Notes: generated from the sequence alone by a model not told the origin. A DNA stretch of 64,000 nt from Candidatus Woesebacteria bacterium RBG_16_42_24 (GCA_001792115.1 MGFX01000006.1:18537-82536); one strand, 5' to 3'; shown: positions 56,893-59,199, counted from the stretch's first letter. Program-made: numbers and translations.

Positions 56893-57390
56893 AATTTGTA
56901 AATTTAACCCTAGTAAAGTATTGTTTTTTTGCAGGGGCTAGTGGCCCGACTTCGAACAGTTTGGCACGAGATAGACTCGATTGAGACTGATAAAATTCAA
57001 GAGTTTATTAACACGGAACAGCGTTTATTTTTTAATAGTTCTGGTACTGCCTATTAAGTGGAGCTAATGGATGGTTGGGGAGTTCTCGCATCTATATCCA
57101 ACATAAACCGAGTTCGTTGGTTTGGCCCTATCCCCGCAGAAGTTTTTAATACACCGTCATCATCTTCATAAAATAGGGGTAGAGCTCCCTTAACAGTTTT
57201 AAGTCTTATTATCTTTGGCCCAACCCTAAACTCACAAATTGTTTTAATTGGAGCTTTTTGGGGAGACAGAATGTTTTCTTTTCCCATTTGAAGATCAGTT
57301 TAATGTATTTACACCTAAAGTCAACTATTTTGGGCGAACATCGGATTATTGTTTACCATTTGATATTTGGACATATTTGAAGCTATTTTG

Positions 57391-57461
57391 CAGGGCTGCC
57401 AGGATTTGAACCTGGAAGAGCGGTTTTGGAGACCGCCATGATACCATTTCATCACAGCCCT
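57391..57461 (-). tRNA. tRNA-Trp (anticodon CCA)
   Basis: Reverse complement: acceptor AGGGCTG/CAGCCCT, anticodon arm GCGGT-CTCCAAA-ACCGC, T-arm CCAGG-TTCAAAT-CCTGG. Confidence 0.8.
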
Positions 57462-57600
57462 AAAAAATCAGCGGTTTTTGCTTGCCCTCCGTAACTTTAG
57501 TGAAGGAGGGGAGACCTCCGGCCTACCACTGACCGACACCCCTAAATCGAATAACAGCCTATTTTACTTCAAATTAGATAGAACCTCAAACCATACCCGT

Positions 57601-57630
57601 GTGCTCATGTATGATAAGATGATATATCAT
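57601..57630. repeat. 30-bp direct repeat, copy 1, containing the perfect palindrome ATGATATATCAT (operator-like)
   Basis: gtgctcatgtatgataagatgatatatcat; copy 2 at 58048-58076. Confidence 0.8.
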
Positions 57631-57658
57631 ACACCAGGCTGTGTTGGGTCGGGTTGAA

Positions 57659-58054
57659 TCAAAAGGGAGTTATTTTCTTGAGCAGGCTTCTTTTTGAAAG
57701 GTCTAAGTTCTTCAAGAAATCTTTTGTTAATTCCTTTGCGAAGGTTAACTTCAATTTTCTCATAAGCAAATTTTTGTCTCCCTCTGGGACCAATTTAGTT
57801 TGTAATCTAAACCGTGAGATTGTCTGTCTAGTGGTTTTTATTGTACCCGCGACTTCTTCTGGGCTATAGCCAAGTTCCAGTAGAAGAATTATTCCTGCCC
57901 TCTTTTTAAGCATCGCAATTTCAGTTTCAGATAGGAGAGTGTTGAGAATTTTAAATGTTTCGGAACCATCCAATTTATAAAATGCAGCTTTAATAAACTC
58001 TTGAAGTACTTTTTCGGTATGTGGGGCCAGTTTCTTCCGGGAAACGTGTGTCAT
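57659..58054 (-). CDS. TrpR/YerC-like helix-turn-helix DNA-binding protein
   Basis: LELGYSPEEVAGTIKTTRQTISRFR HTH; about 130 aa; start codon sits inside repeat copy 2. Confidence 0.45.
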   Translation of the reverse strand: MTHVSRKKLAPHTEKVLQEFIKAAFYKLDGSETFKILNTLLSETEIAMLKKRAGIILLLELGYSPEEVAGTIKTTRQTISRFRLQTKLVPEGDKNLLMRKLKLTFAKELTKDFLKNLDLSKRSLLKKITPF

Positions 58055-58076
58055 GTATGATAAGATGATATATCAT
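58048..58076. repeat. 30-bp direct repeat, copy 2, overlapping the HTH gene start and promoter region
   Basis: gtgtcatgtatgataagatgatatatcat. Confidence 0.8.
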
Positions 58077-58121
58077 CAACAGGCGAAGTCAATCATTAAT
58101 AGCTACCGTAAGGTACTACCT

Positions 58122-58295
58122 CTATTTGAGGTTGGTAGATTCTTTGTGGAGTTGATATTTTCTACAGTTTGAGCAATGTTTTTTTAGCTCAAGTTTTCCT
58201 TCAATATTGAGTTTATTCCGCGTGGTCACGTAGTTTTGTGATTTACAGACGGAACAAATCATAGCAACAATTTCCCTGGCTCCTTTTTTTGCCAT
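58122..58295 (-). CDS. rpmG: 50S ribosomal protein L33 (57 aa; below the ORF-track cutoff)
   Basis: Manual translation: MAKKGAREIVAMICSVCKSQNYVTTRNKLNIEGKLELKKHCSNCRKYQLHKESTNLK (Cys4 zinc ribbon). Confidence 0.75.
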   Translation of the reverse strand: MAKKGAREIVAMICSVCKSQNYVTTRNKLNIEGKLELKKHCSNCRKYQLHKESTNLK

Positions 58296-58388: not shown

Positions 58389-58634
58389 CTAGCTATCAAT
58401 TAGCTTCCGCATCAACATGTTTCCTTCTCCGGTATTTTTGAAGTACCACTCACGCTTTAAGGCTTCGATTTTAGAACTATATGTTTCTTTATAGATCAAT
58501 ATAAACGGTATCCTGGCTTTTGTTGATTTCGATTGACCATTGTTATGCTGTCTAAGTCGTCTCTTAAGGTTGTCGGTGGTTCCTATATAGAGGTTATGGT
58601 CTTTTTGACTTCTTAGGATATAAAGATAGTGCAT
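58389..58634 (-). CDS. GIY-YIG nuclease family small protein
   Basis: YLYILRSQKDHNLYIGTTDNLKRRLRQH...W. Confidence 0.7.
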   Translation of the reverse strand: MHYLYILRSQKDHNLYIGTTDNLKRRLRQHNNGQSKSTKARIPFILIYKETYSSKIEALKREWYFKNTGEGNMLMRKLIDS

Positions 58635-58638
58635 CCGG

Positions 58639-58711
58639 AGCCTGGATCGGGGATCGGACCCGAGACCTCGTTCTTACCAAGAACGCGCTCTGCCAACTGA
58701 GCTACCCAGGC
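58639..58711 (-). tRNA. tRNA-Thr (anticodon GGU); the T-arm is atypical
   Basis: Reverse complement GCCTGGGTAGCTCAGTTGGCAGAGCGCGTTCTTGGTAAGAACG...; acceptor pairs with TCCAGGC; T-loop TCCGATC is non-canonical. Confidence 0.55.
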
Positions 58712-58870: not shown

Positions 58871-58892
58871 TTACGGGACAAGCACTCTGGTG

Positions 58893-58977
58893 TGCCAAGG
58901 CCAGGATTCGAACCTGGGTAGCCCTTTCGGGCGTCAGATTTACAGTCTGATGCGATTGCCCACTCCGCCACCTTGGC
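58893..58977 (-). tRNA. tRNA-Tyr (anticodon GUA), long variable arm
   Basis: Reverse complement GCCAAGGTGGCGGAGTGGGCAATCGCATCAGACTGTAAATCTGACGCCCGAAAGGGCTACCCAGGTTCGAATCCTGGCCTTGGCA. Confidence 0.8.
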
Positions 58978-59083: not shown

Positions 59084-59155
59084 TCTCTCCGGGAGCCGAC
59101 GAGTGGGATTGAACCACTGACCTTCGCTTTACAAAAGCGTTGCTCTACCGCTGAG
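59084..59155 (-). tRNA. tRNA-Thr (anticodon UGU)
   Basis: Reverse complement GCCGACGTAGCTCAGCGGTAGAGCAACGCTTTTGTAAAGCGAAGGTCAGTGGTTCAATCCCACTCGTCGGCT. Confidence 0.8.
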
Positions 59156-59199
59156 CTACGTCGGCTTGACAGATGAATTATAACAGCATTCAAGAAGAC

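Follow-up and report, generated by a model that had tools for sequence, protein, structure and literature searches.

The window analysed here is a 64-kb stretch of DNA from Candidatus Woesebacteria bacterium RBG_16_42_24 (MGFX01000006.1). On its minus strand lies a cluster of genes that share one orientation throughout, in the order tRNA-Thr, tRNA-Tyr, tRNA-Thr, an open reading frame (ORF) of the GIY-YIG type, rpmG, an ORF of 131 aa, and tRNA-Trp. The 131-aa ORF, which on profile and predicted-fold evidence is a helix-turn-helix (HTH) regulator of the TrpR/YerC(HisR) family, is bracketed by two copies of a repeat that carries a palindrome. These copies are probably the protein's own operators, the upstream one serving autorepression and the downstream one acting as an auxiliary site. 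Functional statements on the regulator family derive from comparative sequence analysis, in which homologous or rpmG-linked loci carry L-numbers and the window locus is called WIN. The bracket and its immediate surroundings comprise the following features:

58122-58295, minus strand: rpmG, ribosomal protein L33 (Pfam Ribosomal_L33, E 5e-17)
58087-58092, minus strand: predicted -35 element of the regulator, TTGACT (promoter scan 10/12)
58051-58079, minus strand: predicted upstream operator copy (exact repeat; core ATGATATATCAT at 58065-58076)
58065-58070, minus strand: predicted -10 element TATCAT, inside the upstream copy (promoter scan)
58052-58054, minus strand: ATG of the regulator, inside the upstream copy
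57659-58054, minus strand: 131-aa TrpR/YerC(HisR)-family HTH protein
57608-57633, minus strand: predicted downstream operator copy, a 26-bp palindrome that begins 25 nt past the stop codon
57561-57589, minus strand: predicted tRNA-Trp promoter, TTGAGG-17 nt-TAAAAT (promoter scan 9/12)
57390-57461, minus strand: intact tRNA-Trp (CCA), an allele unlike the remnant described below (ARAGORN; Rfam tRNA 62 bits)

The initial annotation, a reading of the DNA made before any comparison, had described the bracket as two direct repeats of about 30 bp. The bracketing and the palindrome are confirmed; the length was slightly generous, the exact repeat being 26 nt (TCATGTATGATAAGATGATATATCAT, plus strand; 57605-57630 and 58051-58076, 446 bp apart). 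Similarity between the copies reaches ~45 nt if two 1-nt indels are allowed, and at the downstream copy it then takes in the start codon (ATG) plus 9 nt of the coding sequence beyond it (ATGA[G]CACACG). Such similarity past the ATG is seen in this genome only. The 12-bp palindrome ATGATATATCAT has just two sites in the 64 kb, also when one mismatch is allowed, against a chance expectation of 0.12 (0/100 shuffles gave two), and the 26-mer likewise has just two copies at up to three mismatches. The 12-bp palindrome is part of a larger site. Read on the gene strand, the downstream copy (57608-57633) is the 26-bp palindrome TGTATGATA-N8-TATCATACA, from which the upstream copy differs by 2 mismatches, and in the clade of the window each site contains three 8-bp half-sites (GTATGATA, TATCATCT, TATCATAC). 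No further operator-like sites were found in the 64-kb window at up to 1 mismatch, whether the 12-mer or half-site pairs with 0-10-nt spacers were sought, and at 2 mismatches the number found equals the shuffled expectation.

The 131-aa protein is assigned to the TrpR/YerC(HisR) family because profile, solved-structure and predicted-fold evidence all point there. It is 100% identical to hypothetical protein A2V56_01830 of Ca. Woesebacteria bacterium RBG_19FT_COMBO_42_9. Against PF01371 (Trp_repressor) it gives E 1e-4, covering profile positions 3-86 of 88, and 99/100 of its aligned relatives match the same model, with a best E of 4e-18. The family profile matches the YerC-type 'putative Trp repressor' structures 3kor, 3frw and 3g1c (E 3e-12 to 1e-10) and E. 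coli TrpR itself at E ~0.03. An AlphaFold2 (AF2) model computed from an alignment of 50 sequences has a predicted local distance difference test score (pLDDT) of 78.6, with low confidence in the C-terminal extension (residues 91-131). When this model was compared with the PDB by Foldseek, the best 38 matches were all E. coli TrpR or YerC-type proteins (probability 0.93-1.0; target-normalised template-modelling score, TM, 0.58-0.77), with 1trr ranked first. The resemblance of the HTH to the Trp-repressor/YerC family, proposed in the initial annotation, is thus upheld by the Pfam matches of the relatives, by the YerC structures and by the top-ranking folds.

A profile of the window protein and four relatives retrieved 1540 cluster representatives (E<=1e-3) from among 1.84 billion proteins, so that the clusters matching it, formed at 50% identity, number at least 1540. 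So far the regulator subfamily looks confined to bacteria of the candidate phyla radiation (CPR), and in their source annotations the relatives appear as 'Trp family transcriptional regulator [Patescibacteria...]' or 'YerC'. The CPR members are 129-150 aa long, begin with a near-invariant N-terminal arm (MTHVSRKKL or MPHVSxKKL; M-[TP]-[HQ]-[VIL]-S-x-K-K-L) and carry an added helical extension at the C-terminus. In an alignment of our own, numbered on the window protein, Thr78 and Arg81 fall on the DNA-contact residues Thr81 and Arg84 of TrpR; Arg52 and Arg81 are opposite Arg54 and Arg84 of TrpR, and position 77 is opposite its Ala80. Family members also occur at four GTDB loci (L010, L012-L014) labelled as metagenome-assembled genomes of Gammaproteobacteria, Lysobacterales or Xanthomonadales. 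We suspect these to be mis-binned CPR contigs, because the nearest source-named protein relatives are Patescibacteria.

The bracket recurs throughout the family. Homologous loci (11 from GTDB genomes and 80 from metagenomes, each covering +/-2.5-3 kb around the gene; 64 non-redundant) were scored by the best ungapped match between the upstream flank (-110 to +6) and the downstream flank (stop-6 to +130), with cross-locus flank pairs and 100 neighbouring genes from the same loci as controls. Two copies of one palindrome flank the gene in 56 of the 64 loci, which come from across the CPR bacteria. The median score of a locus against its own flank is 20. Cross-locus pairs score 8 at the median and 15.5 at the 95th percentile, a value that 87.5% of the 64 loci exceed; for the neighbouring genes (n=100) the median is also 8, and only 2% lie above that percentile. 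A generic dispersed repeat, which the initial annotation had named as a finding that would speak against it, is rejected on the copy number (two in 64 kb) and on the lack of such brackets around the neighbouring genes, 2% of which exceed the percentile.

What is conserved is the arrangement, the bracket element being a palindrome of 16-38 bp whose sequence is lineage-specific. Examples are ATGATATATCAT, ..GTATGATATATCATAC.., ..ACGATATATCGT.., TACAATATATTGTA, AATGATTTAAATCATT and GATGATACGAATCATC, and further ATGTTCTAGAACAT, AATGTTTTAAAACATT, TGTATAATA-N8-TATTATACA and GTATATCATATATTAATATATGATATAC. In four lineages with proteins 69-76% identical (L001-L007), one order is common to all: rpmG, repeat, gene, repeat, TTGAGG-17-TAAAAT, tRNA-Trp. 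At this degree of aa identity both repeat copies are almost invariant and the intergenic surroundings have diverged: in L001-L003 the upstream copy is invariant while its flanks differ, and the downstream copy is kept as well, with its central 8 bp inverted in L003 (which therefore has two left half-sites and a single right one, in place of a single left one and two right ones). Extra copies of the palindrome occur in 9/46 loci, nearly all within ~250 bp of the gene and on either side of it. At L016:1200-2000 and L067:350-1100, one of the two contigs being labelled Saccharibacteria, 4-6 extra copies of the lineage-specific palindrome lie on both sides of the gene, which hints at complexes of higher order and not at a simple pair of sites.

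Around the 64 loci no conserved partner gene was found near the regulator, and no his, trp or transporter theme; the neighbours are instead diverse housekeeping genes. An M50 peptidase gene lies upstream in 7/57 loci, and genes for prolyl-tRNA synthetase (ProRS), RluA and tRNAs lie downstream in some clades. The candidate downstream target hisS was rejected, the aminoacyl-tRNA synthetase (aaRS) in question being ProRS.

The identity of the palindrome follows that of the protein. All 16 loci with Gln at residue 77 have TATCAT half-sites and all 11 loci with Ser there have TATCG(T/A/C) half-sites, with no exception; clustered at 50% identity, the two groups make up 6 and 5 clusters. A less clean correspondence is seen between the central bases and N-terminal residue 3 (His or Gln). 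Such covariation is as expected if the encoded protein reads the palindromes, and would be hard to reconcile with a generic repeat. Residue 77 is a predicted determinant of specificity, Gln or Ser matching A or G in the half-site.

As the initial annotation had noticed, the upstream copy of the repeat overlaps both the start codon (ATG 58054-58052) and the promoter region. The predicted promoter is sigma-70-like: in the window TTGACT (58092-58087) is followed by a 16-nt spacer and TATCAT (58070-58065), so that the -10 element falls within the palindrome. Ten nucleotides separate the -10 element from the ATG, with no Shine-Dalgarno sequence, which predicts that the regulator mRNA is leaderless or has a leader of 3-4 nt. 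The layout recurs across the family. The centre of the upstream palindrome lies 12-22 nt before the ATG in 38/56 loci (mode 16), a -35 element of TTGAC(A/T) or TTGAT type is found 21-35 nt upstream of that centre in ~20 loci, and TTGACT or TTGATT is kept at the -35 position in L001-L003. A dimer bound to the upstream copy would block RNA polymerase, resulting in negative autoregulation by promoter occlusion. The overlap with the -10 element and start codon, the family-wide layout and the covariation with the recognition helix support the autoregulatory operator that the initial annotation had proposed.

In most loci 0-40 nt lie between the stop codon and the start of the downstream palindrome. 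On average this palindrome is longer than the upstream one (26.0 against 20.7 bp; Wilcoxon p = 2e-4) and forms the more stable hairpin (-8.8 against -5.4 kcal/mol; Wilcoxon p about 1e-4). It occurs with either orientation of the next gene, co-directional (29 of 51 neighbours) or on the opposite strand and convergent (22), and the two operators stand 412-593 bp apart from centre to centre (46 loci). An intrinsic terminator at the downstream copy of the window was considered and rejected: the sequence is AU-rich (-8.8 kcal/mol), has 1 T in the next 10 nt, and the terminator scan was blank. More generally the site is not an intrinsic terminator, because no T-run follows it as a rule. The downstream copy is better read as an auxiliary operator of the same protein, a more complete palindrome placed just past the stop codon, because it is longer, lacks a T-run, tolerates any orientation of the neighbouring gene, has no partner gene beside it and belongs to a set of copies that stay near the regulator. 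Its most likely role would be to keep the weaker operator at the promoter more stably occupied, whether by cooperativity in binding or via a ~450-bp DNA loop; the bound protein may also form a roadblock that insulates the gene from its neighbours. That the protein actually binds, the sign of the regulation, looping or a roadblock, and any ligand are what we infer.

Several observations weigh against a pair of operators read by the protein between them. Taken alone, the window protein scores 22.6 bits against PF01371, under the 27-bit cut-off. About 12% of the loci have no clear downstream copy (e.g. L015, L028), and the covariation is partly confounded by shared ancestry. Looping has no positive support apart from the existence of two sites, and helical phasing of the spacing is not significant (Rayleigh nR2 peak 2.4 near 10.9 bp among the periods scanned), for which reason the loop is put forward as a proposal and not as a finding; for loops of ~450 bp helical phasing is expected to be weak. 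Finally, it is not obvious what a regulator would be for if its binding were limited to the surroundings of its own gene; other targets may exist outside the 64 kb.

A rival reading is control of tRNA-Trp. The downstream copy would then be chiefly an operator of the tRNA-Trp promoter, through which the protein, perhaps sensing tryptophan, would tune tRNA-Trp as well as itself, a proposal that is compatible with autoregulation and that we consider unlikely overall. A tRNA-Trp gene follows the regulator in ~11/64 lineages (WIN, L001-L003, L011, L023, L026, L030 and L032; farther off in L028, L029 and L010), and rpmG is kept upstream of the regulator in WIN, L001-L003, L011, L023 and L026 (synteny comparison). 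The TAAAAT-type tRNA-Trp promoter always begins shortly after the palindrome; in the latter seven loci TTGAGG or TTGAGC-17-TAAAAT starts 8-18 nt past it. In L028 and L030 the regulator still adjoins tRNA-Trp, other genes parting it from rpmG, and because of this persistence a functional link between regulator and tRNA-Trp is possible in this sub-clade. In other clades the co-directional downstream gene often has a part in translation, being one for tRNA-Lys, tRNA-Leu, ProRS, leucyl-tRNA synthetase (LeuRS) or an RluA-type synthase. However, most of the family has the site without a tRNA, and the palindrome is equally present before convergent genes (the 22 of 51 downstream neighbours on the opposite strand). 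Its position is tied to the stop codon of the regulator and not to the next promoter; the distance from its centre to the -35 element varies over 18-35 nt, out of helical register, and the site lies upstream of the -35, off the core promoter. Control of tRNA-Trp through a shared operator, one of the two options offered by the initial annotation, is therefore not established, given the linkage in so few lineages, the anchoring at the stop codon and the unfixed distance to the tRNA promoter.

A broader version of the same idea would make the protein a CPR-wide ligand sensor of TrpR/HisR type that loops its own gene, with the distal operator coupling amino-acid status to tRNA-Trp transcription in Microgenomates-type lineages and to other tRNA, aaRS or rRNA-modification genes elsewhere. 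This is speculative and decidedly improbable; if true, it would mean protein-repressor control of a tRNA gene in organisms unable to make amino acids.

The second option of the initial annotation was that the repeats are the ends of a small cassette, as a target-site duplication or terminal repeats, inserted between rpmG and tRNA-Trp. The tRNA cluster is indeed an insertion hotspot, with variable small ORFs between tRNA-Thr and rpmG and a replaced tRNA-Trp, and the similarity of the WIN repeats past the ATG is what a duplication would give. Related genomes, where the initial annotation had proposed to look for rpmG directly followed by tRNA-Trp with a single repeat copy, give a mixed answer. 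In L105 (L33 70% identical) the two genes do abut, with 10 nt between them and no regulator gene, but this empty site has no repeat copy, contrary to target-site duplication. L102 (L33 84% identical) keeps one degenerate copy (ATGAgATgTCATCaTATCAT) and no regulator ORF after rpmG (L102:1680-1730), but the solo copy is still preceded by the gene's -35 element, TTGACT, which fits a deletion scar, probably left by a deletion that ran from one direct repeat to the other. Since L105 and L102 lack it, the regulator gene is dispensable and has been gained or lost within the rpmG/tRNA-Trp cluster. Other evidence stands against an inserted unit. No transposase or recombinase is encoded, the protein being an HTH protein only, and no recombinase is consistently nearby (an integrase is a neighbour in 2/51 loci). 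The repeat has only two copies in the 64 kb, searches of 50,697 phage records, 72,556 plasmid records and IMG/VR contigs yielded no relatives, and family members sit among housekeeping genes. The synteny of rpmG, regulator and tRNA-Trp is kept down to ~40% protein identity, and the palindrome covaries with the recognition helix and not with an insertion site. With neither a catalytic gene, nor dispersed copies, nor phage, plasmid or viral relatives, and with such lasting synteny, the cassette is poorly supported and highly improbable.

Least credible of all is an element acting as RNA, in which the downstream hairpin would be a terminator or 3'-end stabiliser and the upstream one would end rpmG transcripts: the downstream palindromes are the longer and more stable ones and a T-run follows a few of them (e.g. 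L019), but the next 10 nt contain a mean of 3.2 T, the same as upstream, with 6 or more T in only 4/64, the hairpins are AU-rich and weak, a hairpin needs neither a match to a promoter-proximal site nor covariation with an HTH recognition helix, neighbouring genes have no such brackets, and the Rfam scan of the window returned tRNAs and no other RNA family.

The remainder of the cluster has a history of its own. Its other features in the window are:

59091-59166, minus strand: tRNA-Thr(TGT)
58892-58977, minus strand: tRNA-Tyr
58637-58711, minus strand: tRNA-Thr(GGT)
58389-58634, minus strand: 81-aa GIY-YIG ORF
57510-57543, minus strand: tRNA-Trp remnant, the 5' half of an older allele (exact 34-nt match to the tRNA-Trp of L003/L011)

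The slot between tRNA-Thr(GGT) and rpmG differs in each close relative. It holds the GIY-YIG ORF in the window, a 23S rRNA intervening-sequence protein (PF05635) in L002, and unknown ORFs of 163 aa in L001 and 144 aa in L003; the slot is a variable insertion hotspot inside the tRNA/ribosomal-protein cluster. At the other end, the interval 57462-57543 (minus strand) holds the 5' half of a tRNA-Trp (34 nt), cut in the anticodon loop at ...GGTCTCC, and then a 48-nt spacer with a hairpin (CCCTCC...GGAGGG) and a T-run that separates the remnant from the intact allele. The 3' half of the old allele was not found in the window, and L002 retains only ~13 nt of that allele. The original tRNA-Trp thus appears to have been disrupted and replaced. 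In loci linked to rpmG, a conserved ORF of 220 aa ends at, or overlaps, the 5' end of an intact tRNA-Trp at L101:2124-2789, L102:1813-2475, L029:1157-1819 and L028:3092-3748; the L102 and L029 versions are 54% identical, Pfam gives only weak HTH matches, and in L101 and L029 a 5' tRNA-Trp fragment lies upstream of the ORF. The pattern resembles that of an element inserting into tRNA-Trp and carrying a replacement copy with it, and the 48-nt spacer of the window may be a leftover of it.

To our knowledge, very few transcription factors are recognisable in CPR/Patescibacteria, and gene regulation in these organisms is almost unknown. The present analysis defines a large TrpR/HisR-like CPR subfamily, with a predicted operator for each lineage, a predicted specificity determinant and an unusual, conserved bracket of two predicted operators around the gene, and these predictions are testable with a 130-aa protein and short oligonucleotides. 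Its co-evolving protein-DNA pairs form a natural series in which the divergence of specificity can be studied. As far as we know, CPR bacteria generally lack Trp and His biosynthesis, and the question arises what role an amino-acid-repressor fold has where the biosynthetic pathways are lacking.

The nearest characterised relatives of the regulator are HisR and TrpR. YerC is the same protein as HisR, which represses in a histidine-dependent manner, has palindromic operators of 20 bp and often autoregulates, and HisR and TrpR proteins have lineage-specific motifs and autoregulate via a site at their own promoter (PMC9413887). The CPR proteins resemble them in sequence family, predicted fold, palindromic operators of ~20-26 bp and predicted autoregulation. 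They differ in length (130-150 aa as opposed to ~100), having the N-terminal arm and the C-terminal helical extension; in the absence of any biosynthetic or transporter target in the 64-kb window or among the neighbours in the 64 loci; and in a specificity that diverges rapidly, co-evolving with the site. Moreover, their operators flank their own gene on both sides, which is not reported for HisR and TrpR (PMC9413887). The two-site bracket around a regulator gene seems to be previously undescribed: beyond the HisR paper, no description of the CPR subfamily or of the bracket was found in the searchable literature, which does not prove that there is none. The 8-bp offset of the half-sites recalls the register of tandem TrpR binding (1trr), as a resemblance only.

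The bracket itself has parallels elsewhere. Repressors that loop DNA or lie between operators include lambda cI, encoded between OR and OL, and those acting at lac O1/O2 and gal OE/OI. As in these systems, a promoter-proximal operator is paired with a distal one a few hundred bp away, here past the coding sequence; the product of the bracketed gene is the predicted binder, and some loci have extra sites on both sides. In dual-operator looping systems two cognate operators lie 0.1-2.5 kb apart, and the spacing found here fits that range (446 bp in the window). In contrast to lambda, lac and gal, the CPR loci show no phasing signal, the distal site is usually the better palindrome, and no other regulated genes lie inside the bracket. 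A second parallel is the oriC of Bacillus subtilis, a bipartite origin in which clusters of DnaA boxes flank dnaA. There, too, a protein whose DNA-binding fold is TrpR-like has sites upstream and downstream of its own gene, but the CPR regulator has no AAA+ domain and its sites are palindromes, whereas DnaA boxes are asymmetric 9-mers. An origin or terminus context was considered for the window and rejected, as there is no GC-skew switch. By analogy, lambda cI between OR and OL and the DnaA boxes around B. subtilis dnaA would be the closest counterparts of the bracket.

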